A stretch of 64,000 nt of DNA. Origin: an uncultured Gammaproteobacteria bacterium (GTDB lineage Bacteria; Patescibacteriota; Patescibacteriia; Magasanikbacterales; UBA922). The stretch covers positions 92-64,091 of the forward strand of contig CAYMVY010000002.1 of NCBI GenBank assembly GCA_964394405.1, written 5' to 3'. The notes under the pieces were generated by a model. It was not told where the DNA came from. It worked only from the letters and a program-made list of their open reading frames with translations, and ran no database searches. Shown here piece after piece: positions 7,386 to 63,686 of this stretch (position 1 is the stretch's first letter; every line of letters starts with the position of its first letter). Position numbers and translations under genes: made by a program.

Positions 7386-8009
7386 ATGGGATTTATCAAA
7401 CGGTTCAAAGAGCGGAATGGGGACTTATTCGTGTATTTGAAAGCAGAAGAAGTTCATCCACATGACTATTTTTTGGCAAAAACGATACTCAAATGGTTTC
7501 CATCGAGTATTACCCCGAATCGGATAAGCATTTTTAGAATTTTAGCAACTCCTGTTGTTTTTTATTTGATACTCAATGGCTTTTATCGAATTGGGATTAT
7601 CACTTTTCTTCTAGTAGCATTTACTGATGCTCTCGACGGTTCTCTCGCTCGGACAGAGAATAAGGTGACCAAGTTTGGGATGCTTATTGATCCTGTGGCT
7701 GATAAATTTCTCGTAGGATCGATTATTCTTATTTTGGTTTTTAGAAATCTCAATCCTTGGCTAGGTATTGCAGTTTTGGGAATTGAGGTGGTATTTATTG
7801 TTTCAGCATTAGTGTCGCGGATAAAATTTAAAACTGTCCGAATGGCAAACAGATGGGGTAAGATTAAGATGTTTCTTCAGGTACTCGCTATGTGTGCGAT
7901 TATGTTTGGGTTGGTACTCGATGTACCTATATTTTTTTCATTCGCAACTGGAATTTTGGGACTTGCAATCGGATTTGCTATTGTGAGTTTGTTTAAACAT
8001 GGACTTTAA
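7386..8009 (+). CDS. CDP-alcohol phosphatidyltransferase family protein
   Basis: Signature D-G-x2-A-R-x8-G-x3-D-x3-D is present as DALDGSLARTENKVTKFGMLIDPVADK. It is a multi-TM protein. Confidence 0.8.
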   Translation: MGFIKRFKERNGDLFVYLKAEEVHPHDYFLAKTILKWFPSSITPNRISIFRILATPVVFYLILNGFYRIGIITFLLVAFTDALDGSLARTENKVTKFGMLIDPVADKFLVGSIILILVFRNLNPWLGIAVLGIEVVFIVSALVSRIKFKTVRMANRWGKIKMFLQVLAMCAIMFGLVLDVPIFFSFATGILGLAIGFAIVSLFKHGL

Positions 8010-9718: not shown

Positions 9719-9878
9719 CACTAATGCGATAGGATGAGGTTTGAGGTTAGTATTTTGGATTTTAATTATCGGCTCTGGTGAACAACCTTGATCCGACCCC
9801 TTTTCATTCTAAAGATTACAAGATGTAAGAATGAAGATTGGAATTTTCTTTTTACTTTTTACTTTTGACTTTACTATT

Positions 9879-10283
9879 ATGGACTGCGTTTTTTGTAAAA
9901 TTTTAAAAGGAGAAATTCCTAACTATACTGTGTATGAGGATGAATATGTTTTGGCGTTTCTCGACATTCATCCTACTGTTGAAGGGCATACCGTAGTCAT
10001 TCCAAAAACACATGGTGCGACAATTTTTGATTTTAGCGAAGAGGTTTTGGGGCAATTGATGAAGGGCGCACAAAGAGCAAGTGAGAGATTGAATGAAGTT
10101 TTGCATCCAGATGGATTTTCTATTGGGTGGAATCATGGAGAAGCAGCAAAACAGGGTGTGCCTCATCTTCATATACACATTATTCCTCGGTATCATGGTG
10201 ATGGCGGGGGAAGTATGCATTCGATTGTTCGACAAGATGGTATGCACACCGTTGAGGATGTTTCAAAGCTTTTTCATAGATAA
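9879..10283 (+). CDS. HIT family hydrolase (histidine triad)
   Basis: MDCVFCKI... and the HxHxHxx motif (HLHIHIIP). Internal ATG start used. Confidence 0.85.
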   Translation: MDCVFCKILKGEIPNYTVYEDEYVLAFLDIHPTVEGHTVVIPKTHGATIFDFSEEVLGQLMKGAQRASERLNEVLHPDGFSIGWNHGEAAKQGVPHLHIHIIPRYHGDGGGSMHSIVRQDGMHTVEDVSKLFHR

Positions 10284-10881: not shown

Positions 10882-10921
10882 AATCTGCGTAATCAATGTT
10901 AATCTGCGTAATCAATGTTTT
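10882..10921 (+). promoter_or_regulatory. Tandem duplicated motif AATCTGCGTAATCAATGTT x2 ending 2 nt before the rfbB start codon
   Basis: Exact 19-bp tandem copies at 10882-10900 and 10901-10919. The same half-sites TCTGCGTAATC and AATCAATGTT are found upstream of mraY. Confidence 0.6.
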
Positions 10922-11929
10922 ATGAAATTACTAGTAACTGGCGGAGCTGGTTTTATCGGATCAAATTTTATTCGATATTGGTTGAGAGAGCATGCAGACG
11001 ATGAAATCGTTAATTTTGATGTATTAACATACGCGGGCAATCTAGAAAATCTAGATGAAGTAAGCGATGATCCCCGATATCATTTTATCAAAGGAGACAT
11101 TACTGATCGGGATGCAGTTTTTGACGCAGTAAAAGATGTTGACGTCGTGGTGCATTTTGCCGCTGAGTCTCATGTGGATCGATCGATTATGGATCCTATG
11201 ATTTTTGTAAAAACAAATGTTATTGGAACGCAGAATTTGCTTGATGCCACAAAAGAATATAAGAAAAGATTTCATCATATCTCGACTGATGAAGTGTTTG
11301 GAGCTTTGAAATTAGGGGAAGCCGCGTTCAATGAGCTCACTCCATATGATCCGAAAAGTCCTTACTCTGCTTCCAAAGCCGCTTCTGATCATCTGGTTCG
11401 TGCATATCGACATACTTTTGGAATTGAGGCGACCATTTCAAATTGTTCGAACAATTACGGCCCGTACATGTTTCCTGAAAAGTTTATTCCATTATGTATT
11501 TCCAATCTGATGGAACATAAAAAAGTACCAGTCTATGGTGATGGACTGTATATACGAGACTGGATACATGTTGATGATCACTCACGTGGAATTGATGTTA
11601 TTTTGAGTAAGGGAAGAATAGGAGAGACTTATTGTCTTGGTGGAAATTCTGAAATGACGAATCTCGATGTAGTAACATTGCTTTTGAAGTACATGCACAA
11701 AGATGAATCGTATATTGAATTTGTAACAGATCGACCAGGACATGATCGACGATATGCGATTGATTTTACCAAAGCAAAGACTGAGCTCGGATGGGGGCCT
11801 GAAATCAAGTTTGAAGAAGGACTCAAAAATATGGTAGACTGGTATCTCTCGAATCAAGACTGGGTGAATCGCTGTAAGAGCGGTGCTTATCGAGAGTACT
11901 ACGCTACACAATATGGTGAACGTTACTAG
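10922..11929 (+). CDS. rfbB: dTDP-glucose 4,6-dehydratase
   Basis: [16 protein letters not shown] Rossmann N-terminus, catalytic YSASKA, SDR extended family. Its length and motifs match RmlB. Confidence 0.9.
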
Positions 11930-11931
11930 TT

Positions 11932-12807
11932 ATGAAAATACTTATTCTCGGTAATGGATATATCGCGAAGCGCTGTGCGAAAGCATGGGCCAACGCGGTA
12001 CATGATCCTACAAAAATATATTCGAAAGAAGATGTTATTGTGTTAATCGAAAAACACCATCCTGATGTAATACTTAACGCTGCGGGCGTGCGTGGAAAAC
12101 CCAATGTTGACTGGTGTGAGACTCATCAGCTCGAAACTATTGTTGGTAATACTAAACTTCCAATTCTCATTGCAGAAGCATGTCAGGAAAAAAATGTGTA
12201 TCTTCTGCATATTGGCTCTGGTTGTATTTTTTATGGCGATTCTCCGCATCCGGATAAGAAATGGCGCGAGAATGATATGGGAAATCCGACAGATGTGACC
12301 TATTCTCGAACGAAATGGGCAGCTGATCTGGTGCTTTCTACTTTGCCAAATACCGGTATTGCTCGAATCCGCATGCCGATTGACTGGATTCCCGCACCTG
12401 ATAATCTGATTAACAAACTCACGTCGTTTTCGAAAGTGATTGATGTTGAAAATAGTGTGACTATTCTTGATGACATGGTTGAGGTTTTTTATAAATTACT
12501 TGAGAAAAAAGCAGAAGGAATTTTTCATGTAACTAATCCTGGAACTTTGAAGCACAGAGAGATTGTTGGTTTATATGAAGAAATAGTTGATTCTGCACAC
12601 AAGAATGAGTGGATTAGTAATGATGATCTGGTAACGCAGGGGCTTGCAACTAAGGGTCGATCGAATAATTTTCTAGCTTCAGAAAATCTCGGAAAGATTG
12701 GTATTGAAATGCGCGAGGTAAAACAAGCAATTCGAGACACTATGGAAAAATATGCTAAGGCAAAAAAAGATGGATTGCATTGGGAAGAATTTCTGACAGT
12801 TGAATAA
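11932..12807 (+). CDS. dTDP-4-dehydrorhamnose reductase-like NAD(P)-dependent epimerase/reductase
   Basis: MKILILGNGYIAK Rossmann-like N-terminus and a YSRTK catalytic motif. It sits immediately downstream of rfbB. Confidence 0.65.
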   Translation: MKILILGNGYIAKRCAKAWANAVHDPTKIYSKEDVIVLIEKHHPDVILNAAGVRGKPNVDWCETHQLETIVGNTKLPILIAEACQEKNVYLLHIGSGCIFYGDSPHPDKKWRENDMGNPTDVTYSRTKWAADLVLSTLPNTGIARIRMPIDWIPAPDNLINKLTSFSKVIDVENSVTILDDMVEVFYKLLEKKAEGIFHVTNPGTLKHREIVGLYEEIVDSAHKNEWISNDDLVTQGLATKGRSNNFLASENLGKIGIEMREVKQAIRDTMEKYAKAKKDGLHWEEFLTVE

Positions 12808-12970: not shown

Positions 12971-13591
12971 ATGGCACATAATTCTTCGTGGATCGAGTGG
13001 TTCAATACGCAGTGTATCGTTTCGTCGATGATCGTCGTCCCGAAGCCTATTCAGACCGTGCGTGGATGGGTGATGGATCTTCTTCGGGGATGGTTCGGTC
13101 GGACGGATGGTAAGTTCTTCCAGATGGTCGGGTTCGAGATCTCGGTGCCGAAGCCTGGACAGCGGGAGATCCCGAGCTGGGACCAGCCTCTGATCCAGGA
13201 GGTGGGCGAGGGAGCTCTCGGACTTCTCAAGGTCCGGGGAGAGGATCTGTACCTGGTCTCTGCCAAGGCCGAGCCGGGCAACAAGTCCAGAGGTCGGGTC
13301 CTCCTCGCGCCTAGCCTGCAGGCTTCCCGCTCCAACCTCGAGCAGGCGCATGGTGGCACCCTGCCGCCGCGTGCCGAATTCGCTCGAGAGTCGGGCGTCA
13401 AGTGGGTCGACTTCCTCAAGGATGGTGGCCGCTTCTTCGAGAGCACCAACCAGGCCGCGGTGATCGAGGTCGACTACTTCCATCCGAACTCGAACGAGCG
13501 ATGGTTCAGTCGCTACGAGCTCAGGGAGGCTCTCCTTCGCGGTGTGTGCAACGCACACCTTCGAGAGCTGCTCGCGCTCGCGTTCATCTGA
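12971..13591 (+). CDS. Single-domain NDP-hexose 2,3-dehydratase-like protein (Hexose_dehydrat family; Nudix-like fold), high-GC, with SD AGGAGAGG
   Basis: Motifs recalled for the TylX3/EvaA/EryBVI family: GKFFQMVGFEISV, WDQPLIQEVGEGALGLL, LVSAKAEPGN, LAPSLQASRSN..HGG, DGGRFFESTNQAAVIEV. It is 206 aa, half of the usual two-domain enzyme. It shows ~60% GC against a ~40% background. Confidence 0.6.
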   Translation: MAHNSSWIEWFNTQCIVSSMIVVPKPIQTVRGWVMDLLRGWFGRTDGKFFQMVGFEISVPKPGQREIPSWDQPLIQEVGEGALGLLKVRGEDLYLVSAKAEPGNKSRGRVLLAPSLQASRSNLEQAHGGTLPPRAEFARESGVKWVDFLKDGGRFFESTNQAAVIEVDYFHPNSNERWFSRYELREALLRGVCNAHLRELLALAFI

Positions 13592-15553: not shown

Positions 15554-15632
15554 AACACGGATGACACGGGTCTAACGGATTTTATTGCATTATCCGTGAT
15601 AACCCGTGTTACCCGTTCAATCCGCGTTCTAT
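15551..15632. repeat. Array of ~9-bp units (AACACGGAT / ACCCGTGTT types) arranged convergently, between the PMI and GT2 genes
   Basis: aacacggat gacacgggt ctaacggatt | atccgtgat aacccgtgtt acccgttca atccgcgttc. A homologous array with opposite arrangement lies at 31869-31958. Confidence 0.65.
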
Positions 15633-15643
15633 TAATTAAGATT

Positions 15644-16501
15644 ATGCGAGTATCTGTTATTACGGTGACCTGGAATAGTAAGGAGTTTATTTTCAACCAA
15701 ATTGAATCTGTTAAGCGTGCGGCACAGAATATTCAGATTGAGCAGATTGTAGTTGATAATGCATCGACTGATGGGACTGTCGAGGTAATACAAGAGAGAT
15801 TTTCTGATGTTATAGTGATTGCAAATAAAGAAAATAAAGGATTCGGTGCAGCGAATAATCAGGGTGTGGAGATTTCGAAAGGGGAGTATGTATTGTTTCT
15901 CAATCCTGACATGAAGTTGGAACCAGGATCACTCGATATATTTGTTGATTGGATGGATACAAATCCAAAGGTTGGTATTGCGAGTCCAAAATTGGTTGAT
16001 GAGCAAGGTGTACTTAATTTGAACACAACTCCCCGTCGATTCCCACGAGTGTGGGAACAGATTGCGTTGATTGTTAAATTACCCCACCTTTTCCCCTCAT
16101 TTCTTGACGGGTATCGAATGAAGGGGTTTGATAGTACTAGAGAACAAGAGGTGGATTCGGTACAGGGTTCGTGCATGCTGGTACGAAGAGAATTGATTGA
16201 AAAATTGGGGTATGCCTTCGATCTTCGATATTTTATCTGGTATGAGGATGTCGATCTTTGTAGGGAGGCATATCGGCTGGGATACGTGGTTATGTATACG
16301 CCGGTCATTAGTGCGGTTGATTATAGTGGGCAGAGTTTTAAAAAACGGACGACTTTGTGGAAACAAAAACAATTTACTCGATCCATGCTTGTTTATTTTC
16401 AAAAATGGGAACCATGGTGGAAGTGGGTATGGATCGCAGTATTTAGACCAGTAGGAATTGGGATCGTCTGGATAGGGGAAAAAGTAAAAAGTAAAAAGTA
16501 A
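15644..16501 (+). CDS. Glycosyltransferase family 2
   Basis: MRVSVITVTWNS...DNASTDGT...NKGFGAANNQG...YVLFLNPD is the GT-A DxD-type fold. Confidence 0.85.
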   Translation: MRVSVITVTWNSKEFIFNQIESVKRAAQNIQIEQIVVDNASTDGTVEVIQERFSDVIVIANKENKGFGAANNQGVEISKGEYVLFLNPDMKLEPGSLDIFVDWMDTNPKVGIASPKLVDEQGVLNLNTTPRRFPRVWEQIALIVKLPHLFPSFLDGYRMKGFDSTREQEVDSVQGSCMLVRRELIEKLGYAFDLRYFIWYEDVDLCREAYRLGYVVMYTPVISAVDYSGQSFKKRTTLWKQKQFTRSMLVYFQKWEPWWKWVWIAVFRPVGIGIVWIGEKVKSKK

Positions 16502-16515
16502 AAAATATTTTTTAT

Positions 16516-17595
16516 ATGCAGAAGTTGGTTATACAGCTGGTGACTTGGAACGGAAAAAAGTATATTCCGTATTTGTTTGATTCACTCAGGAAGCAAACAT
16601 TTAAAGATTTTTATTTGTATATTTTGGACAATGGATCAACTGATGGAACTCCAGAAGCAATCGATAGAGAATTACAAAATTTTCAGTTTGAATATACGTT
16701 TGAAAGGAACGAGAAAAATATGGGATTTGCAGGAGGGCATAATCAGATATATAAAGTCGCAAGTCGCAAGTCGCAAGTCGAAAGTTTCGAATATATACTT
16801 TTGTTGAATCAAGATATATATCTTATACCCGATTGTATTGACAAAATGGTGAATTTTTTAGATGCAAATCAAAATGCATCTGCAGTAAGTCCGAGGCTTA
16901 TGCGGTGGAATTTTGAAGAAGTTCATGATGGTGTAGAGAAAAGTTTTAGTTTTTTTATTGATTCACTGGGACTCCGGGTTTTTCGCAATCGTCGTGTCAT
17001 TGAAAAATACGCAGGAAAAACCTGGGAAGAGAAAAAATCAAGACTGGAATTATCATTTCGCACGCATGACGACGCAATGGAAGTTTTTGGAGTTTCTGGA
17101 GCATTGCCCATGTTTCGACGCAGCTCGCTTGAAGTTGTGAGTTTTAGTGACGGAACTTTTTTTGATGAATGGTATCAATCGTATAAAGAAGATATTGATC
17201 TTGCATATCGATTGAGAATCGCTGGCTTTCAATCATTTGTGTTGCTTAATGCAGTCGCATACCATGATCGATCCGCTGTCGGATTAGAGAGAATGGGTGA
17301 TCGTATTGCAGCTCTGAATAAAAAGAAACAGTCAGTATGGGTCAAATATAATAGTTATAAGAATCATCTCGTGACTATTTATAAAAATGAGTATTGGCAG
17401 AATCTCATCCTTGATTTTTATCTTATTATATGGTATGAGTTGAAGAAGTTTTTGTATTATTTATTATTCGATCGCCCGGTACTCAAGGGTATTCTCGAGA
17501 TTTGGAGAGATAGAAAAAAACTTAAGTATATGAGAAAGGAGATTGTACATATGAGACGGGTTTCATGGAGAGAATTAAGAAAGTGGTGGAAATAG
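16516..17595 (+). CDS. Glycosyltransferase family 2 (rhamnosyltransferase-like) containing an in-frame heptanucleotide tandem repeat
   Basis: LVTWNGKKYIPY..DNGSTDGT..NMGFAGGHNQ...YILLLNQD. The 7-bp repeat lies at 16756-16783. Confidence 0.85.
   Translation: MQKLVIQLVTWNGKKYIPYLFDSLRKQTFKDFYLYILDNGSTDGTPEAIDRELQNFQFEYTFERNEKNMGFAGGHNQIYKVASRKSQVESFEYILLLNQDIYLIPDCIDKMVNFLDANQNASAVSPRLMRWNFEEVHDGVEKSFSFFIDSLGLRVFRNRRVIEKYAGKTWEEKKSRLELSFRTHDDAMEVFGVSGALPMFRRSSLEVVSFSDGTFFDEWYQSYKEDIDLAYRLRIAGFQSFVLLNAVAYHDRSAVGLERMGDRIAALNKKKQSVWVKYNSYKNHLVTIYKNEYWQNLILDFYLIIWYELKKFLYYLLFDRPVLKGILEIWRDRKKLKYMRKEIVHMRRVSWRELRKWWK
16756..16783 (+). repeat. Heptanucleotide tandem repeat (GTCGCAA)x3 + GTCGAAA inside the GT2 coding sequence
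   Basis: aagtcgcaagtcgcaagtcgcaagtcgaaag. 3x7=21 nt keeps the frame. It encodes a short insertion relative to paralogous GT2s in the window. Confidence 0.8.
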
Positions 17596-17598
17596 CGT

Positions 17599-18432
17599 AT
17601 GAAAGATATTGGGGTAGTTATCGTTAATTATAAAATGAAAGAACACATTGAAAAATGTCTTACTTCGTTATTTCCGCAGATTGCACGTTCAACTCTCAAT
17701 ATTAGCGTCGTCGTTGTGGACAATGCGTCAGACGATCACATTAATCTTTTTTTACTTGAACATTTTCCTCAGGTTACTTGTGTAATGCTTCAGAAAAATG
17801 AGGGTTTTGGGAAAGCACAAAACGTTGGTATGAGAAGTATGGAAGCAAAATATTATTTTATTCTTAATCCAGATACCGTATTTACTGAAAATGATCGAAC
17901 CCTCGAGCGTTTGTATCATTTTATGGAATCACGTCCCAAAGTCGGAATGGCTGGTCCTAAATTGCTTAATTCTGATGGATCTCTCCAGCATTCATGTTGG
18001 CGTTTTCCTACGTTTTGGCAACCTTTGTTTAGTCGAACTCGATTGGGTGAAAAGGGGAGGGGTAAAATGATCTCTGATCATTATTTTATGAAAGATTTTG
18101 ATCATGAGTCTACGCGTCCAGTCGATGCTCTGATGGGTTCTGCAATGTTTGTGCGAGGAGAAGCAATTAAGAATGTCGGTAGATTTGATGAACGTTTTTG
18201 GATGTATTTTGAAGATGTGGATTGGTGTATTCGGATGTGGGAAGCAGGTTGGTTTGTGTATTATATCCATGATATTGTGTTAAAACATAGACATGGACGA
18301 GGTTCGGCTAAGGTTCCTGGAATTTTTCGAGCATTTTTCAAAAATAAACTTGCACGAGTACATTTTTTTAGTTGGATAAAGTATTTTTTGAAGTGGCGAG
18401 ATATACATCCGTATTACACCAGTAAATTTTAA
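17599..18432 (+). CDS. Glycosyltransferase family 2
   Basis: VVIVNYKMKEH..VVVVDNASDD..NEGFGKAQNVG..YFILNPD. Confidence 0.85.
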   Translation: MKDIGVVIVNYKMKEHIEKCLTSLFPQIARSTLNISVVVVDNASDDHINLFLLEHFPQVTCVMLQKNEGFGKAQNVGMRSMEAKYYFILNPDTVFTENDRTLERLYHFMESRPKVGMAGPKLLNSDGSLQHSCWRFPTFWQPLFSRTRLGEKGRGKMISDHYFMKDFDHESTRPVDALMGSAMFVRGEAIKNVGRFDERFWMYFEDVDWCIRMWEAGWFVYYIHDIVLKHRHGRGSAKVPGIFRAFFKNKLARVHFFSWIKYFLKWRDIHPYYTSKF

Positions 18433-18440
18433 CCTCTCGT

Positions 18441-19547
18441 ATGGATCAACTTAAACCAAAAATCGGTATTGTGTACCTACTGTATTATCATAATGAGACA
18501 TATATTGATGATATGGTTTCTTCTTTGCGGAAAATTACGTATCCCAAAGATAGGATTGAACTTATTATTGTTGCTAATCCACATGCTGACGAGGGTTCTT
18601 TTGTTCACTATATTGAATCAGCTGTTATGCCCCTTTCGGGCAATGAAATTCCGCATACCACAATACTCCCTCAGGAAAAGAATCTTGGGTTTGGTATAGG
18701 GAATAATGTAGGAACAAAATGGGCAATTGAACATGGGTGCGACTATGTATTTTTTCATAATAACGATGGTTTTTTGGCGACCAATGCATTTGAGCCACTA
18801 GTCGAAGCTTTTGCTTCGGACCCACAGATTGGCGCTGCACAGTCGCTTGTATTGCTCCATCCGGAGACTAATTTGCTCAATAGCGCGGGAAATTCCTTTC
18901 ACTATCTTGGTTTTGGGTTTTGCGATCAATATCGAGTGGATATTAAAAATGTATCATTTCCCCCAATTAAAGATGTAGATTATGCGAGTGGTGCCGCACT
19001 CATGGTTCGTTCTGATTTGATTAAAAAGTATGGTGGATGGGACACGGACTTTTTTATGTATCACGAAGATTTAGAGTGGGCATTTCGGTTGAGGATTCGT
19101 GGGTATAGGACTATTCTCGTCCGTGATTCGATTTTTTATCATAAATATCAATTTGGTAGAAGTATTGAAAAGTTTTTTTGGATGGAAAGAAATCGGCATG
19201 CAATCATGCTTATGTTTTTCAAAATTCCAACCCTCATTTTCCTTCTTCCCATGGGAATTATACTTGAAATTGGGTTGTGGTTTTTTACAATCAAAAATAA
19301 ATATGTCTCAAAACGGGTTGAAGTTTACAAGTATTGGCTTACTTGGAAAAATTGGAAGCTATGGCTCGAGAAGCGAAAAAAAATGCAATCTGAACGGGTT
19401 ATTTCTGATCGCCAACTATTGAAATATTCAGTTCCTGAAATCAAATTTCAAGAAACTGGGATACATAACCCTTTGCTTGTCTACATTGGTAATCCGATTA
19501 TGAAATTGTACTACTGGATTGTAGTTAAGGGTTTGATTTGGTGGTAA
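18441..19547 (+). CDS. Glycosyltransferase family 2 with C-terminal membrane segment
   Basis: IVYLLYYHNE..NLGFGIGNNVG..DYVFFHNND, with a hydrophobic C-terminal region. Confidence 0.8.
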   Translation: MDQLKPKIGIVYLLYYHNETYIDDMVSSLRKITYPKDRIELIIVANPHADEGSFVHYIESAVMPLSGNEIPHTTILPQEKNLGFGIGNNVGTKWAIEHGCDYVFFHNNDGFLATNAFEPLVEAFASDPQIGAAQSLVLLHPETNLLNSAGNSFHYLGFGFCDQYRVDIKNVSFPPIKDVDYASGAALMVRSDLIKKYGGWDTDFFMYHEDLEWAFRLRIRGYRTILVRDSIFYHKYQFGRSIEKFFWMERNRHAIMLMFFKIPTLIFLLPMGIILEIGLWFFTIKNKYVSKRVEVYKYWLTWKNWKLWLEKRKKMQSERVISDRQLLKYSVPEIKFQETGIHNPLLVYIGNPIMKLYYWIVVKGLIWW

Positions 19548-19592: not shown

Positions 19593-20678
19593 ATGCGAAT
19601 AAGAAAAGCGATTTTAACAGGTGGTGGACGTGCAACACGATTGCAACCCATCACTACAACTATCAACAAACATCTTCTTCCACTTGCAAATAAGCCGATG
19701 ATTTTTCATGCAATAGAAAAAGCAGTGGAGGCAGGGGTAGTTGAAATTTTTATTAATACCAATCCTGGGGATACTGAGTTGCAACGAGTGATTGGTGACG
19801 GGGGGCATTGGGGAGTCAATATAACATTTTTTGAACAGACCGGAGGGCCCCAAGGGATTGCGCATGTGGTGAATGAAGCGCGTAATTTTATTGGAGACGA
19901 CCCCTTTATGTTTTACCTTTCAGATAATGTGGTTTTGGGGGATCTCAAGGGATTTTTTGATGAATTTTCTATGGGCAATTATGATTGCATGCTTGCGCTT
20001 TCGGCTGTCTCTGATCCCGAGCGTTTTGGAGTACCTATATTTAATGAAAAGAAAGAACTGATTGATGTAATTGAGAAGCCGAGTAATCCTCAGAACAATT
20101 TTGCAGTGACGGGCATGTACCTCTATGGTCCGCGGGTATTTTTTGATGCGTTTGAACATATTGAAAAAAGTCCCCGCGGAGAATATGAGATTTCGAGTAT
20201 TCATTCATATTTTTTGAAACAGGGAAAGCGTGTCGGGTACAAAGAAATTACCGGGTGGTGGAAAGATACGGGGAAAATGGATGACCTGTTGATTGCCAAT
20301 CGTCTGTTACTTGATAAAACTGACAAGGATTTTTTTGTCTACCCGCGTGAGCTCGTGAAAGATGCAGTGCTTTCTGGCGATGTGCATATTGGCAATGGCA
20401 CGCAAATTGGGAAGAATGTAATTCTCAAAGGGCCAGTGGTTGTTGCTGAAAATGTATTGTTAGAAAATTGCGTGATTGGCCCACATGTGACTATAGGCTC
20501 AGGGTCTGAGATCAGAGACGCACGTATTGATGATTCAATTATCCTCGATAATTCTACGATTATTGCAGACATGCATATTACCCGTAGTATCATTGGTAAA
20601 CATGTCCGATTGACAAAAAAGAGTACTGACGGTGGTCGATCAATGATTATTGGAGACAAAACAAATGTAGAGTTGTAG
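19593..20678 (+). CDS. Sugar-1-phosphate nucleotidyltransferase (RmlA/G1P thymidylyltransferase-like) with C-terminal left-handed beta-helix
   Basis: AILTGGGRATRLQPITTTINKHLLPLANKPMI N-terminal NTP-transferase motif. C-terminal hexapeptide repeats (IGNGTQIGKNV...). Confidence 0.75.
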   Translation: MRIRKAILTGGGRATRLQPITTTINKHLLPLANKPMIFHAIEKAVEAGVVEIFINTNPGDTELQRVIGDGGHWGVNITFFEQTGGPQGIAHVVNEARNFIGDDPFMFYLSDNVVLGDLKGFFDEFSMGNYDCMLALSAVSDPERFGVPIFNEKKELIDVIEKPSNPQNNFAVTGMYLYGPRVFFDAFEHIEKSPRGEYEISSIHSYFLKQGKRVGYKEITGWWKDTGKMDDLLIANRLLLDKTDKDFFVYPRELVKDAVLSGDVHIGNGTQIGKNVILKGPVVVAENVLLENCVIGPHVTIGSGSEIRDARIDDSIILDNSTIIADMHITRSIIGKHVRLTKKSTDGGRSMIIGDKTNVEL

Positions 20679-23397: not shown

Positions 23398-23522
23398 ATT
23401 TTTAACGCAAAACTCAAATGTCAAAACGAAAAACTATAACTAAAAATTTAAAACTAACATACGATGTATAAAGTTTTAGATTTGAGTTATAGTTTTGAAC
23501 TTTGAGTTTTCAGTTTTGACTC
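23398..23522. repeat. ~125-bp palindromic dispersed element (AAACTCAAA / TTTGAGTTATAGTTT family), copy 1
   Basis: The left arm aaaactcaaatgtcaaaacgaaaaactataact mirrors the right arm agttatagttttgaactttgagttttcagttttg. Related copies lie at 33298-33402, 56599-56696 and 60096-60155. Confidence 0.7.
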
Positions 23523-33221: not shown

Positions 33222-33297
33222 AAAATAGCTAATAACAATAAGCAGAATAAGTAGTAAGCAATTCGGATTTAGAATTACAACATATTATATATTGAAT

Positions 33298-33402
33298 AAG
33301 CTCAAAACGTAAAACTCAAAGCTTAAAACTGGAACTAAAAACTCAAAATTTTAAGCTTTGAGTTATAGTTTTAAGTTTTGATATTTAAGCTTTGAGTTTT
33401 TT
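33298..33402. repeat. Palindromic AAACTCAAA/TTTGAGTT dispersed element, copy 2 (overlaps the 3' end of the NUDIX gene)
   Basis: ctcaaaacgtaaaactcaaagcttaaaactggaactaaaaactcaaaattttaagctttgagttatagttttaagttttgatatttaagctttgagtttt. Confidence 0.7.
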
Positions 33403-33802
33403 TTAAATACTCCTCAACAACAGCTCTTACATTTGGAGCACAATCTTCCGGTAGATCATTAATATCAAACCAGTTCCATTCAACAATATTTTCACCTGGT
33501 TTTATTTCTCCAATTCGCTTTGCAAGATAGTGGATAAGAATCACTAGTTTTTCTGGATGGTCTGGGCGATGTACGAGCATTGGTTTTAATGGTTGTATGA
33601 TTTCAACTTTAATTCCCATTTCTTCCATTACTTCACGTTTACATGCTTCTTCAAGTGAAATATCAAAAGATTCTACTTCTCCGCCAGGAAAAAGCCAGGT
33701 GGTAATTCGACCATTTTCTTTCTTCTCTTTATTAAGCAAAACTTTGCCATTTTCAATAATGACTGGTCCCGAGGCAATAATTGTTTGATCTGGTAGATAC
33801 AT
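33371..33802 (-). CDS. NUDIX hydrolase
   Basis: Nudix box GGEVESFDISLEEACKREVMEEMG. Confidence 0.8.
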   Translation of the reverse strand: MYLPDQTIIASGPVIIENGKVLLNKEKKENGRITTWLFPGGEVESFDISLEEACKREVMEEMGIKVEIIQPLKPMLVHRPDHPEKLVILIHYLAKRIGEIKPGENIVEWNWFDINDLPEDCAPNVRAVVEEYLKKTQSLNIKT

Positions 33803-41056: not shown

Positions 41057-41089
41057 AAAGTCAAAAGTAAAAACGCAAAAGTAAAAAGA

Positions 41090-55670: not shown

Positions 55671-56600
55671 ATGAATATTTCCTTTGTTTCAAAACGAAAT
55701 TATTTCTTCTTGATCTCGATTGTATTTGTTGCGGTGAGTATCGTAAGTCTCATTATGTATGGTCTCAAACCAGGGATTGATTTTACGGGTGGCACCTTGG
55801 TTGAGTTGAAATTTACTCATGAGAGGCCAACTCTTTCAGAGATACAAGAAATTGTTCCTGAGTCGACCTATGGATCAAGTATTATCCAGTCTGTTGGAGA
55901 CATGGGATATCTGTTGCGTCTACGCTTTATCTCGGAAGAAGAACATCAGCAGATTCTTGCGAGTGCTCGGGAAAAATTTGAAGTAGCGGGAACAAGTGAA
56001 ACTCCTGAGAATCGAGTTCTTGAGGAAAGTATTGAGACTATCGGTCCTGCAATCAGTGAATCTCTGAGAGAGCGATCGGTCCAGGCGGTGATTGCGGTTT
56101 TACTTACGATTGGTGCCTATATCGCGTATACCTTCAGAAAAGTTTCACGTCCAGTCGCTTCGTGGAAATACGGACTTGCTGCTATTATCGCACTTTTCCA
56201 TAATATACTTATTACGATTGGTGTTTTTTCTCTTTTGGGACATTTTCATGGCGTAGAAGTCGGTATTTCGTTTGTACTCGCACTTCTCACGATTCTTGGT
56301 TTTTCGGTACACGATACTATTGTGGTGTTTGACCGTATTCGAGAAAACCTGAATCGATATGGGGCAAATGAGTTTGAGTCATTGGTCGATCGAGCGCTTA
56401 ATGAGACTTTTGTCCGTTCGATTAATACTTCGATTACGGTATTGATTGTATTATTCTCACTTTTTGTATTCGGAGGAGAATCAATCAGATACTTCGTACT
56501 TGCGCTGATTGTGGGCATCTTCTTTGGAACATATTCTTCGATTTTTATTGCGTCACCACTTTTGGTGGTTTCACATCGGTTGTCACGGAAGAGAGCGTAA
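55671..56600 (+). CDS. secF: Protein translocase subunit SecF
   Basis: LKPGIDFTGGT.., a 6-TM core, and its position after secD. Confidence 0.9.
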   Translation: MNISFVSKRNYFFLISIVFVAVSIVSLIMYGLKPGIDFTGGTLVELKFTHERPTLSEIQEIVPESTYGSSIIQSVGDMGYLLRLRFISEEEHQQILASAREKFEVAGTSETPENRVLEESIETIGPAISESLRERSVQAVIAVLLTIGAYIAYTFRKVSRPVASWKYGLAAIIALFHNILITIGVFSLLGHFHGVEVGISFVLALLTILGFSVHDTIVVFDRIRENLNRYGANEFESLVDRALNETFVRSINTSITVLIVLFSLFVFGGESIRYFVLALIVGIFFGTYSSIFIASPLLVVSHRLSRKRA

Positions 56601-56696
56601 CTCAAAACGTAAAGTTTAAAGCTTAAAACTATAACTCAAATCTCAAAGGTTTGAGTTTTTAGTTTCAGTTTTGCGTTTTGACATTTGAGTTTTGAA
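56599..56696. repeat. Palindromic AAACTCAAA/TTTGAGTT dispersed element, copy 3
   Basis: taactcaaaacgtaaagtttaaagcttaaaactataactcaaatctcaaaggtttgagtttttagtttcagttttgcgttttgacatttgagttttg. Confidence 0.7.
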
Positions 56697-56733
56697 TTTT
56701 CTATGCTATACTTTTCCTATAACTATTCTTCAT

Positions 56734-60080: not shown

Positions 60081-60095
60081 AATTTTAGCTGATTA

Positions 60096-60155
60096 TTTTT
60101 AGTTTTAAGCTTTAAGTTTCAGTTTTGAATTTTGCGTTTTTAGTTTTGAACTATA
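60096..60155. repeat. Half copy of the AAACTCAAA/TTTGAGTT element family (copy 4)
   Basis: agttttaagctttaagtttcagttttgaattttgcgtttttagttttgaactata. Its reverse complement contains aaagcttaaaact and aaaacgcaaaa, as in copies 1-3. Confidence 0.6.
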
Positions 60156-60641
60156 AAATCGTACTGCTTCAATTCCTCCGACCAATACTCCCGTATAGAA
60201 GAAATCACTCAATAAACTATTTCGGAAGAAGGGGAGAGCGAGGTAGTAGCTTTCCATAAGTCCGGCAATAGTTCGTGGGTAGAGCGCGCCAAATGCCCAG
60301 ACCATGGTATTAGTGACGAAGTAGAATAGGATCGAGCTTGCCAGGGTAATTCCAATTATTGTCCCAACATTTTTGTGCTTTTTTGCCCAGGTACCAAAAT
60401 AGGTTGTGGCAAGCAAACATCCGTATACTGATACCATGACTAGTGGATGGTAGAAGCCAATGAATAGATCGCTTACGAGCATTGCAGTCATTGGCACGAT
60501 ATATGCCAGTTTGCGGGGTAGATATAGCCCTCCTACGAGTGCTAGGGCGGTAATTGGTACAAAGTTTGGGCTATGCGGCATAAGGCGTGCTAGGACCCCG
60601 TATGCTGCCAAAGCGATGACTAGGATAAGGTATTTTTTCAT
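60105..60641 (-). CDS. Small polytopic membrane protein
   Basis: 178 aa, 5-6 TM helices. Immediately downstream of the surface-protein pair. Resembles the sizes and topology of ECF-transporter S components. Confidence 0.4.
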   Translation of the reverse strand: MKKYLILVIALAAYGVLARLMPHSPNFVPITALALVGGLYLPRKLAYIVPMTAMLVSDLFIGFYHPLVMVSVYGCLLATTYFGTWAKKHKNVGTIIGITLASSILFYFVTNTMVWAFGALYPRTIAGLMESYYLALPFFRNSLLSDFFYTGVLVGGIEAVRFYSSKLKTQNSKLKLKA

Positions 60642-60666: not shown

Positions 60667-62853
60667 TTATTTTTTTGAAGACTTCCTGCTTATACCCATA
60701 TATCCGGTGAGCAGGATGAATATGGTAAGTGATATGATGAATATATATGTATTTGTATTACTTTTGGGTTTGGGTGTTTCTATTACCTCGCCTTGATCTT
60801 GTAGTTCTATCACTTCTTCGGTAAGCGGCTGAGTATTTTTCTCTTCTACTATTTCTGTATTTTCAATTCTCTCTCCGAGTACTACAGGTTCCCGATATGT
60901 GACAACTTGTATTGTATTCGCTTCCTCGGGTACTATCACATTTTCTTCTTCTATTACTACCGCGACTTCAGGAGTGGAAGTAGTGATTGGGTTTTCTGTC
61001 TGAGTTGTTGTGACAAAAATGGTAGAAGTAGTAACTGGTGCGGTTGATGTGACTGTTGGAGTTGGAGTGGTGGTTGTCGTAGTACCAATTGCCCCGGTAT
61101 TAGTTGGGTTCTGTACTGTGCTTGGTTTGTTGAAACCGGAAAGAATCGACCCCCATTTTTTTTCGAGTACACCAGGAATTGCGTATGACGTAGCCCAAAT
61201 TCGATTGGTAAGTATATCACCAGACAAAAGTCCGCCATCAGTGTCCTGGTTTTTAGTAATATAGGTTATTCCAGAATTGTCTCCCATTTTCCATGTTTCT
61301 GCAGTTTCACCAAGTGCCTGAATTGCCTGAAGTGTCCAACCGGTTGCGTATACATTTCCAAAACTTCCATCAGTTCCTTGAATTGATTTGAGATATGCTT
61401 TTGCTTTTGTAAGTGCTTCTTCTACACCAGAAATACCTGAGGTCATAGAAAGTGCCTGGATTCCGGCTGCAGTAAGGTCGACTGAGCCAAATGATCCGAC
61501 CTGATTTTGACTTGCAATAATATGTTTTGTCGTGCTTACGATTAGTTGATCCTGCGCTGTATAACCGGCTTTGAGTAGAGGAACGAGAGCAAAGATGTCA
61601 TCGTTCACCAGTCCGGCATCCCCAAATTGGTTACCGTCATATCCGTCGAGAATGGCTTGAATGTAGTTGGTTTTGGTTCCGGTGTAGGGATTGATTCCAA
61701 GAGACATTAGACCCATTGCGCGACGTGCATAGTTGGTCGTGTGGTTGGGGCCATCAAGCGGATTTGGATCTGTAAGTAGATATGTTGAAAGTTTCGATTT
61801 ACCCATTTGTTCACCAGTCCAGGCGCCGTATGCAATTGCAGCCCAGTCGCTCACGAATGCGCTTGATCCGAATGATCCATCGGCGTTCTGTTTTGCGTCA
61901 AGAAACGCAATCATCTGTTCTACTGGATTCTTGGTGGTGCAACATGAACCACCACCTCCGCTCCCTCCGCCTGGGCTGGTCGGCGGGGGAGTTACTGGAA
62001 TTTCTCTAGCCGTAATGGTGCGTTCTGTGGTTACATATCCTGATTTTGACACTAGAATAGTGTAGGGCTCTACGGTGGTTATTGAGAGTGTTGTTGTGTT
62101 TGAACTTGGTATTTCTTCTATACCGTTTATACTGATAGTTGAATTAGTACTCGGAAGCCATACGGGATTCCACGATGTATCAAGACCAAATTCGTAGATC
62201 GAAACGATTACTGAATCTCCTACGTGCGGAGAGGTTGTAGAAAGCTCGATTTTGAGAGGAATCGTATTGTATTGAATTAGTATCTCATCCCCTTCGATTA
62301 GGGTGTATGCATTTAGAGCAATTGATCCATATTCCAGATTGATAAAATACCCCCAGAAATTGTTTGCACTAAAATCATTGTGTACACCATTGATCGAATC
62401 AAGGAATGCATCAGTGCCAAAGAAATTCCAGGTTGAGGTTAATCCCGGTGCCTGATCCACCAGACATTTTGCATTGAGTGTGTATTCTGTTGATGCTTCA
62501 TATGGTTTACAGGCAGTGACGGTAAGAGTCTCGTTAAAGAGAATGTTTCCATTTGCTACTACATACAGCCGCGCAGAAACAGTTGGGAGTGTTGTTGTAG
62601 GTGTTGCTATTATTTCTTCTGTCACCTGTGCATCAGTCGAGGTCGTGGTAGTTTCTTGTAGGTCTTCTGTTTGAATTTCTTCTATTTCGAGTAGAGGAGC
62701 TTCTTCTATTTCTTCGGGTGCGGGTATGTTTTCTGGAATTTCTATACTCTCTGGTGCTGTTGTTTCGGGAATTGCGTCTTCTGCATGTACTGATACAGTT
62801 ATTGAGAAAGACAGTGCAAGGATAATGAATAGGCTAGAGTATTTCTTTTTCAT
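60667..62853 (-). CDS. Cell-surface protein: signal peptide, DUF4430-like beta-domain, alpha/alpha-toroid domain with QxDGSFG repeats, Thr-rich stalk, C-terminal TM anchor
   Basis: MKKKYSSLFIILALSFS signal. Repeats QNADGSFGS, QNQVGSFGS, QGTDGSFGN, QDTDGGLLS. Stalk TTTTTPTPTVTSTAPVTTST. C-terminal IFIISLTIFILLTGYMGISRKSSKK. Confidence 0.6.
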   Translation of the reverse strand: MKKKYSSLFIILALSFSITVSVHAEDAIPETTAPESIEIPENIPAPEEIEEAPLLEIEEIQTEDLQETTTTSTDAQVTEEIIATPTTTLPTVSARLYVVANGNILFNETLTVTACKPYEASTEYTLNAKCLVDQAPGLTSTWNFFGTDAFLDSINGVHNDFSANNFWGYFINLEYGSIALNAYTLIEGDEILIQYNTIPLKIELSTTSPHVGDSVIVSIYEFGLDTSWNPVWLPSTNSTISINGIEEIPSSNTTTLSITTVEPYTILVSKSGYVTTERTITAREIPVTPPPTSPGGGSGGGGSCCTTKNPVEQMIAFLDAKQNADGSFGSSAFVSDWAAIAYGAWTGEQMGKSKLSTYLLTDPNPLDGPNHTTNYARRAMGLMSLGINPYTGTKTNYIQAILDGYDGNQFGDAGLVNDDIFALVPLLKAGYTAQDQLIVSTTKHIIASQNQVGSFGSVDLTAAGIQALSMTSGISGVEEALTKAKAYLKSIQGTDGSFGNVYATGWTLQAIQALGETAETWKMGDNSGITYITKNQDTDGGLLSGDILTNRIWATSYAIPGVLEKKWGSILSGFNKPSTVQNPTNTGAIGTTTTTTPTPTVTSTAPVTTSTIFVTTTQTENPITTSTPEVAVVIEEENVIVPEEANTIQVVTYREPVVLGERIENTEIVEEKNTQPLTEEVIELQDQGEVIETPKPKSNTNTYIFIISLTIFILLTGYMGISRKSSKK

Positions 62854-63418
62854 AGTTCCACATGATTATGTCGTTTGGGTTAAGTATGAGTGTTGATATT
62901 CCTTTGTTTGATTTTTTGCCATTGATGTAGAGTATCCAGTACATTTTTTCTCTAGTATTTTCTGCTATTCCATTGATTGATTTCACAAATGTGCCGAGAT
63001 CTCCACCATATTCAATGCTTTCGTACCAGAATGATTCAGGGTATCGTGAATGCGCATCTTTCATCGCACTTTCTGCTGACAGGTTTTCTTGATAGGGAAT
63101 ATGTAAGTTTTTTCCGTTTATTTGCAGTGTTATTTTTGTTTTGAATATTTCTTCTTGGTTTATTTCAGTAGTTGTTGGAGTGTCTGGTTCTGTACCGGTG
63201 CCAGTAGTTACTGTTTGTGTGGTAAGTGGTAGTTGGTAAGTGGTAGCTGGCTCAGTTTTATTTTGTTCATCATCAATTTTTACTTCTCTAATTATTTCTT
63301 CTTCCTTCTCTGGAATTTTGAAATTTTGATTTTGAACTTCGCTGTTCCATAAGTATCCACTCACGAGTGTTGCGGTACCAAAGATGGTAATGAGAAAATA
63401 TAGTAGTTTTTCACGCAT
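62834..63418 (-). CDS. DUF4430-domain protein with N-terminal membrane anchor
   Basis: ITLQINGKNLHIPYQ...WYESIEYGGDLGTFVKSINGIAEN...MYWILYINGKKSNKGISTLILNPNDIIMWNY matches the DUF4430 pattern. Confidence 0.6.
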   Translation of the reverse strand: MREKLLYFLITIFGTATLVSGYLWNSEVQNQNFKIPEKEEEIIREVKIDDEQNKTEPATTYQLPLTTQTVTTGTGTEPDTPTTTEINQEEIFKTKITLQINGKNLHIPYQENLSAESAMKDAHSRYPESFWYESIEYGGDLGTFVKSINGIAENTREKMYWILYINGKKSNKGISTLILNPNDIIMWNYEKEIL

Positions 63419-63686
63419 AGATACTTGTAGACAAAAAAATTCCCCTGAGCTGAGGAATGTCTATGTTGGTACATGGCGGTATCAAAAAATACCTATGTAC
63501 TGGTTCCTGCTCGGGATAACACACATTCTACAAGATCGGACTTTTACCGTTGCGGCACAGTCAGGGAATTACACCCTGGTTCCAGTAGAATAGGTTTTTG
63601 TTGTAAATAACAGGTAAATTGTATCAGGTATGTGCCTGATGTCAAACAGTCATAACTGTTGTTAAAAAAGGGATTTTTTGATATCC

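Follow-up and report, generated by a model that had tools for sequence, protein, structure and literature searches.

Bacteria of the Candidate Phyla Radiation (CPR; Patescibacteria) are believed to be attached to host cells and heavily attacked by phages, which makes variation of their surfaces an open question. A locus that poses this question in concrete form lies in a 64-kb stretch of contig CAYMVY010000002.1 (the window, i.e. the whole stretch of DNA analysed), whose homologue names point to Candidatus Magasanikbacteria within this radiation. Here, a gene predicted to encode a glycosyltransferase of the GT2 family (16516..17595, + strand) contains a tandem repeat of a 7-nucleotide (nt) unit, and an earlier note on the window had proposed that this repeat is a contingency locus, at which slipped-strand mispairing switches the enzyme ON and OFF. 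Is it such a switch? On the evidence below the tract is best read, with a probability of roughly 0.6, as a slippage-prone coding heptamer microsatellite that selection holds in frame. A wider finding outweighs the single repeat: across a class-level clade, one orthologous glycan gene carries heptamer arrays that are perfect, concerted in their evolution, and always in frame.

The heptamer tract and its host enzyme

A perfect period-7 run occupies 16754-16780 (27 nt, 3.86 copies of AAGTCGC); after a single mismatch at 16781 the periodicity continues to 16785, and Tandem Repeats Finder (TRF) reports the tract at 16754-16785, with 4.6 copies and 96% matches. Read on the + strand, the coding array (16754..16785) consists of three AAGTCGC units, one AAGTCGA and a terminal AAGT, and encodes residues K80-S90 of the glycosyltransferase. 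The earlier note had used another register, with GTCGCAA at 16756-16762, 16763-16769 and 16770-16776 followed by GTCGAAA at 16777-16783; the three perfect copies and degenerate fourth that it described are present, and its interval, 16756-16783, is right but slightly narrow. When the window was shuffled 300 times with dinucleotide counts preserved, no shuffle contained a perfect period-7 run of at least 21 nt (the longest run was 20 nt), and a run of 27 nt is expected analytically ~1e-7 times per window. A tract longer than chance allows and a unit length indivisible by 3 within an open reading frame (ORF; 16516-17595) are both properties of contingency loci, and both were found here.

The host ORF matches PF00535 (E 6e-18; 65.7 bits, cut-off 23.3), and an AlphaFold2 (AF2) model of the 359-amino-acid (aa) protein adopts a GT-A fold (predicted local distance difference test, pLDDT, 86; predicted template modelling score, pTM, 0.87) whose top Foldseek match is SpsA (1h7q; E 3e-14, template modelling (TM) score 0.71). 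N98-Q99-D100, at the DXD position at the end of β4, is invariant across 43 aligned orthologues and stands just after the array-encoded loop. Family profile, fold and motif alike predict a GT2/GT-A glycosyltransferase; searches of Rfam, NCBIfam and PDB sequences returned general GT2 matches plus a single unrelated riboswitch, and nothing more. Translation confirmed the placement of the repeat between GFAGGHN and YILLLNQD, where it encodes KVASRKSQVES (K80-S90). In the AF2 model this segment spans the last turn of helix 70-84 and the coil ahead of strand 93-97, whose C-terminal end bears N98-Q99-D100, and the array-encoded loop has the lowest pLDDT of the catalytic domain (68). The insertion had also been described as absent from the three neighbouring GT2 paralogues, which holds for about 7 residues, but many orthologues have heptamer-built insertions at the same site.

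A single-unit slip in the tract shifts the reading frame, as the earlier note had stated, and cuts the enzyme short. Computed products are 94 aa long when one unit is lost and 110 aa when one is gained, and both stop before the NQD motif. The accompanying arithmetic, with three copies ON and two or four OFF, is sound in that a change of one unit in either direction is OFF, but the ON state is better put as 4.6 units, consisting of one original unit and three added ones.

The only other perfect repeat in the window with at least 3 copies of a 4-10 nt unit is also a heptamer array, (AAAAAGT)x3.7 at 16479..16504 (+), which ends 12 nt 5′ of the host ATG and contains both the TAA stop (16499-16501) and the C-terminal codons of the upstream GT2 gene. 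Homologues of this 5′ array occupy the equivalent position in relatives, as degenerate forms at loci L178 and L005, as (AAGTCGA)n at L001 and L181, and as (AAACAGT)x4.1 at L015.

Heptamer arrays across orthologues

Orthologous loci were taken from the best 80 of at least 533 GTDB-genome relatives, chosen as best tblastn matches, and from at least 97 metagenome loci retrieved by a DNA pattern indifferent to reading frame, with GFAGGHN and NQD as its anchors; 146 unique alleles of the orthologue were compared. The loop is 11 aa long in 103 of these and 14-24 aa long in 36. At a lag of 7, nucleotide identity averaged 0.548 in the long loops versus 0.236 in the short ones, while the other lags from 3 to 12 gave 0.25-0.35 in the long loops. 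Lag-7 identity reached at least 0.5 in 26/36 long loops versus 1/103 short loops, indicating that lengthening of the loop in this family is largely heptamer-built. At least 12 distinct 7-nt units are found at the loop site. The AAGTCGC, AAGTCGA or AAGTCAA type occurs in the window, L178, L181, L001, L045 and L076; GGAACAA, GAGGAAC or AGAAACA in L005, L011 and L114; GAATTAC or GAATTAA in L050, L020 and L015; GCTGCAA in L155; GGGGGAA or GGGGAAC in L146 and L127; CCAATTA in L110; and TCYTAWG in L016.

A strict scan for arrays (at least 4 copies, at most 2 mismatches) of the genome loci and the window found 15 heptamer arrays in 85 kb of the gene, 2 in 7.9 kb of sequence within 100 nt upstream, and 3 in 488 kb of flanks. 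At the metagenome loci, where the upstream region was not separated, it found 12 in 88 kb of the gene and 11 in 556 kb of flanks. The density of these near-perfect, 4-5-copy arrays in the gene is 7-29 times that in the flanks. No arrays of period 5, 6 or 9-12 and one of period 8 were found within the gene by the same scan, despite 6- and 9-nt units being frame-neutral. Relaxation of the scan by one additional mismatch gave 33 heptamer arrays in 24/146 unique genes, with 7, 0, 1 and 0 arrays of periods 5, 6, 8 and 9. The arrays cluster at positions equivalent to window residues 50-57, 79-86 (14 arrays), 137-138, 175-177, 210 and 339-343, sites that are length-variable in the alignment or lie in low-confidence segments of the model, and the coding tracts all measure 28-38 nt, i.e. 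4-5 units. Related DNA totalling ~1.2 Mb contains 43 near-perfect heptamer arrays, and the remaining periods between 5 and 12 together account for 12. A relaxed scan of the window by itself did not single out period 7, since its low-complexity filter drops AT-rich intergenic arrays, and the stricter scans over 1.2 Mb were used in its place. The GT2 orthologue is a heptamer-array hotspot across a class-level Magasanikbacteria clade.

The arrays at this hotspot also change as units. The genes of the window, L178, L181 and L001 are each 1077 nt long, without an indel among them, and all four have an 18-aa loop. Between the window and L178, 25.8% of nucleotides differ (46% at third positions), and the 34-nt array differs at positions 7, 14 and 21. 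L178 and L181 have diverged by 10% (19% at third positions), and their arrays are identical at 34/34 positions. Both differ from L001 by 15-16% (25-30% at third positions), with array differences at positions 3, 6, 13, 17, 20 and 27. Every array difference among the four is periodic, and since independent point mutation would break periodicity, such differences mean homogenisation within the array. Sequence comparison shows in this way concerted evolution of the arrays across species, with length conserved.

Several arrays stand in place of other sequence and bring no net insertion, e.g. at the C-terminus in L114 and L064. The L114 orthologue, on a metagenome contig, has three heptamer arrays (12400-12436, 12511-12545 and 13259-13294), and an identical 30-nt (AGAAACA)n is found at two sites of this one gene, 750 nt apart. 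Five further arrays on the same contig (85-4174) lie in two large polytopic membrane proteins without a Pfam match, and in L101 a homologue of one of these proteins also has arrays; such arrays may spread by copying from site to site, or may target envelope genes. At L181 the loop array and an array ~30-70 nt 5′ of the GT2 ATG have one and the same unit, AAGTCGA. At L001 the 5′ array is AAGTCGA and the loop (gene offset ~235) has the related AAGTCAA/AACTCAA, while the window and L178 have an AAAAAGT-type array upstream. These correspondences suggest either exchange between 5′ and loop arrays or a common seed.

Reading frame, copy number and rival explanations

If the tract were an active switch, alleles that are out of frame or differ in copy number might be seen among relatives. 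The frame-agnostic anchor scan found 0/97 loop loci out of frame, and 0/28 among lengthened loops; the 97 loops measure 43, 46, 52, 55, 58, 61 or 67 nt, all equal to 43 modulo 3. Split tblastn matches, a sign of frameshift, were found at 0/80 genome loci and 0/94 metagenome loci with a match (174 in total). Alignments of close pairs, covering 133 kb and 2866 substitutions, contain two true indels of more than 3 nt. The first is one ATTTTGT unit in a heptamer-array hairpin between the upstream GT2 gene and the orthologous gene, in L012 versus L092 (93% identity), so single-unit slippage does occur where frame is irrelevant. The second is a GC-rich, non-periodic 21-nt insertion in the loop of L009 (1446-1466; CCCTCCCATCCGGCGGGCAAG), beside its GAGGAAC array, which is missing from the 90%-identical L011 and from the other loci examined. 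The 24-aa loop of L009 had been a candidate for a three-unit expansion and was rejected as such, the additional 21 nt being non-periodic. Truncated members of cluster P0095 (P0128 and P0132-P0134) were likewise rejected as OFF alleles: their breaks are of homopolymer type or at contig ends, off any heptamer array, and the P0095 array is degenerate.

The favoured reading joins slippage with selection for frame. Slipped-strand mispairing or intra-array conversion would outpace point substitution, and an array that mutates faster than point substitution stays perfect while its units change together. One ancestral unit and three added ones (+21 nt, +7 aa) would have lengthened the end of α3 and the loop before β4. 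As modelled, the strand has the loop at its N-terminal end and NQD at its C-terminal end, which would put the insertion at the opposite edge of the sheet, where it is probably tolerated. Null frameshift variants would arise recurrently and reversibly and then be purged or reverted; purifying selection would hold the population consensus in frame at 4.6 units; and the gains that persist would be those of three units, in insertion-tolerant segments. Frameshifting microsatellites could by this route drive the evolution of protein loops in three-unit steps. Phase variation by the tract is mechanistically possible and unproven, and on present evidence the tract is held ON.

A number of observations weigh against this reading. 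No difference in coding-array copy number was found in gene pairs of at least 85% nt identity. In the P0012 cluster, a species with the GGAACAA array, four alleles on seven contigs have identical loops; L009 and L011, at 90% identity, have one and the same array; and the alleles of the P0002 cluster also show no coding-array length difference. Copy-number comparison across related genomes, which the earlier note had put forward as a check on the switch, therefore went the other way, the coding-array copy number being the same among close relatives and alleles. A collection of 15 billion proteins contains neither the window protein changed by one or three units in either direction nor the L178 protein changed by one, an absence that is uninformative for rare species. 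Coding arrays of at least 7 units are absent from the scanned orthologues, which would be surprising under frequent slippage. The periodic differences could equally come from length-preserving gene conversion, or from contraction and re-expansion, without frameshift intermediates, and the enrichment within the gene could arise partly from insertion tolerance or from local copying of arrays, as in the 30-nt array found twice in L114. L180 is ~98% identical to L178, yet has a short, non-repetitive loop in place of the array; the two differ in a mosaic segment of ~120 nt at gene offset ~250-400, which spans the loop and whose low identity (67-70%) marks it as a product of recombination, not of slippage. 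Homologous recombination evidently moves loop alleles among strains. The observation that genes are always in frame is itself tempered by the 80 genome loci, which as best tblastn matches are biased to intact genes, and the allele and copy-number comparisons, made on consensus assembly sequences and not on reads, have limited power. A Logan assembly (L179, SRR12404947) is identical to the window over 3080 nt; it is probably built from the same data and is not independent evidence of stability.

The best-placed alternative, itself unlikely, is that of the earlier note: a classical contingency locus, with high-frequency ON/OFF switching of the glycosyltransferase under second-order selection for surface-glycan variation, e.g. 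for phage escape or host-cell interaction. The choice of a 7-nt unit, with frame-neutral 6- and 9-nt arrays missing from the gene, is what such a locus would show, as are the strong gene-specific enrichment within an envelope-glycan run, the arrays in the 5′ flank, and those in the cluster-adjacent polytopic membrane proteins of L114 and L101. Concerted evolution implies active slippage, and the non-coding array does show a one-unit difference. There is also a precedent in Neisseria, in which the glycosyltransferase gene pglE is phase-varied by an intragenic heptanucleotide repeat, with ON and OFF phasotypes among isolates (PMC7157529). The window tract resembles pglE in its 7-nt unit within the ORF of a surface-glycan glycosyltransferase, where a one-unit change shifts the frame; the likeness is one of architecture only, since the window tract, unlike pglE, is fixed at 4.6 units and all consensus sequences are ON.

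A second comparison is with Haemophilus influenzae. Among its simple-sequence repeat (SSR) loci tetranucleotides predominate, heptanucleotide SSRs at hmw1A and hmw2A have 13-38 copies and vary between strains, and (AATTTTG)14 within hmw1A was found frameshifted (PMC2651432). The window tract passes the threshold for heptamers in that study, at least 3 units (PMC2651432), and in both lineages one unit length predominates and surface-structure genes carry SSRs within their ORFs and in their 5′ regions. In contrast to H. influenzae, the arrays here have 4-5 copies and show neither differences in length nor a frameshifted allele. Known contingency genes commonly show OFF alleles and tract lengths that vary between isolates, whereas here neither the 97 loop loci nor the 28 long loops nor the 174 loci with tblastn matches include an out-of-frame orthologue, no alleles differ in copy number, and tract length is equal in species that are 46% diverged at third positions. 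Copy-number differences between strains or within populations, and co-occurring ON and OFF alleles, were looked for among consensus sequences and not found, and the tract is therefore not classed as a contingency locus. What survives of the earlier claim is a non-random heptamer SSR of slippage type in a surface-glycan GT2 gene; what does not is the expectation of OFF alleles and of coding length variation.

A doubtful but broader form of the same idea is that Magasanikbacteria have a process that generates and homogenises heptamers in envelope-glycan genes (the GT2 gene, its 5′ region and neighbouring polytopic membrane proteins) and that acts throughout the lineage as a contingency system of low copy number, in which 4-5 units are the ON state of a three-phase frameshift switch and a minority of OFF cells is hidden by consensus assemblies. 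If true, phase variation would extend to a phylum of uncultured episymbionts with reduced genomes; the literature searched yielded no paper on simple-sequence repeats or phase variation in CPR/Patescibacteria. Should reads show 7-nt minority alleles, the hotspot would offer a testable case of CPR phase variation with defined loci. If they do not, an unexplained mutational process of 7-nt period remains, similar in form to the short tandemly repeated repetitive (STRR) sequences of cyanobacteria. STRR units are CCCCAGT and similar. These are 7-bp tandem repeats, often hairpin-forming, whose function is unknown (PMC2670836). Shared with STRR are a lineage-wide, sequence-independent 7-nt bias, hairpin-forming intergenic heptamer arrays, and a multiplicity of loci, TRF having found 11 period-7 arrays in the 64-kb window. 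Unlike STRR, the host is Candidatus Magasanikbacteria and the units are AAGTCGC, AAAAAGT, TTTTGAG and others, so that neither origin nor unit agrees; and while STRR are described as mainly intergenic, the arrays here lie in frame within a specific gene and its orthologues.

Improbable, and less likely than the switch, is a frozen in-frame scar: an occasional duplication process specific to heptamers would have added three units at once or in quick succession, the in-frame survivors in tolerant loops would decay, and the tract would be as stable as ordinary DNA. The constant array size of ~4-5 units (28-38 nt), never 7 or more, fits this, as do the coding arrays without length variation, their position in alignment-variable, low-confidence segments, and the decayed arrays of many orthologues, e.g. 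L014, L008 and L039. The periodic differences would then be put down to independent expansions from slightly different single-copy seeds. The common site, length and related unit in the window, L178, L181 and L001 point instead to one homologous array and not to four births, and L178 and L181 retain 34/34 identical periodic bases despite 19% third-position divergence. Alternating (ABAB) unit patterns, found in L001, in L016 and at window 63219-63246, require multi-step array dynamics, and the addition of exactly three 7-nt units in one step has no known mechanism.

Selection at the protein level is very improbable. It would hold that enzyme function or partner binding gains from the 7 added residues, which make about two helical turns, with the DNA periodicity incidental. 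The insertion does lengthen helix 70-84, the 18-aa loop is conserved in four species, and a long loop is kept in about one quarter of alleles; but selection on protein cannot preserve perfect DNA periodicity or produce periodic substitutions, the peptides are unrelated among lineages (KVASRKSQVES, TRNKEQG, ELRIKNY and AASCKLQAAS), most orthologues dispense with the insertion, and several arrays (those of L114 and L064 at the C-terminus) add none. A related comparison is with coding variable-number tandem repeats (VNTRs). In bacterial surface proteins their units are usually multiples of 3, and length varies without frameshift. Surface-protein VNTRs, e.g. in Legionella (PMC2639597), resemble the present arrays in repeat-driven length change within insertion-tolerant protein segments. 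The 7-nt unit sets the present arrays apart, viable changes being multiples of three units. Chance similarity, or an artefact of assembly or sequencing, for which nothing but the shortness of the tract speaks, can be dismissed given 0/300 shuffles and similar arrays in dozens of assemblies from various studies and assemblers. Three other candidates were set aside on general grounds: target-site duplications or footprints of transposons (the units vary too much, and an element is lacking), mutagenesis by diversity-generating retroelements (which yields no tandem heptamers), and a Shine-Dalgarno-like role (the units are G/A-rich in some cases only).

The surrounding gene run and other repeats

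The host gene belongs to a co-directional run that includes four GT2 genes, RmlB-like and RmlD-like enzymes, an isomerase of SIS/PGI type and a sugar-nucleotidyltransferase. The upstream GT2 paralogue (15596..16501, +) overlaps the AAAAAGT array at its 3′ end, and the two downstream paralogues (17599-18432 and 18441-19547, both +) lack heptamer arrays. Genes for the RmlB-like dehydratase and RmlD-like reductase (PF16363 and PF04321) occupy 10923..12807 (+), the true ATG of the first being at 10923, and the sugar-nucleotidyltransferase, of the nucleoside triphosphate (NTP)-transferase family (PF00483), lies at 19593-20678. The RmlB/RmlD-like and NTP-transferase genes show that the run is predicted to make a nucleotide-sugar-dependent envelope glycan, probably of the deoxythymidine diphosphate (dTDP)-rhamnose type. 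A perfect 19-bp tandem duplication (AATCTGCGTAATCAATGTT x2, 10882-10919) ends 3 nt before the RmlB-like ATG (10923), and its position places it in the 5′ leader or promoter of that gene.

Other heptamer repeats are scattered through the window. Three intergenic elements of ~100 nt (23400-23520, 33295-33405 and 56598-56705) consist of a degenerate (CTCAAAA)n followed by its complement (TTTTGAG)n; they would fold into long hairpins, in some cases followed by T-runs, and resemble STRR hairpins. A T-rich array stands alone at 60090-60160. The hairpin elements matched no Rfam family. Gene starts are closely preceded by arrays of (AAAGTAA)n or (TTTACTT)n at 2412-2443, 41057-41088 and 9844-9872, with the TTTACTT type on the coding strand. 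The HIT-domain gene at 9831-10283 has a heptamer array at its 5′ end, as does, at the matching place (7492-7522), the HIT gene of L101, an unrelated relative.

A second coding heptamer array, at 63219-63246 on the − strand within ORF 62834-63418, has the units CTACCAC, TTACCAA, CTACCAC and TTACCAC in an ABAB order and encodes a T/P-rich linker. This ORF lies directly behind an AdoCbl-II (cobalamin) riboswitch (63525-63591, −), the single Rfam match of the window. In the nearest relative, L178, a gene of the bAvd / 23S-rRNA-IVP family (782-1156) lies directly 5′ of the GT2 cluster; proteins of this family are four-helix bundles that in some systems are accessory to diversity-generating retroelements.

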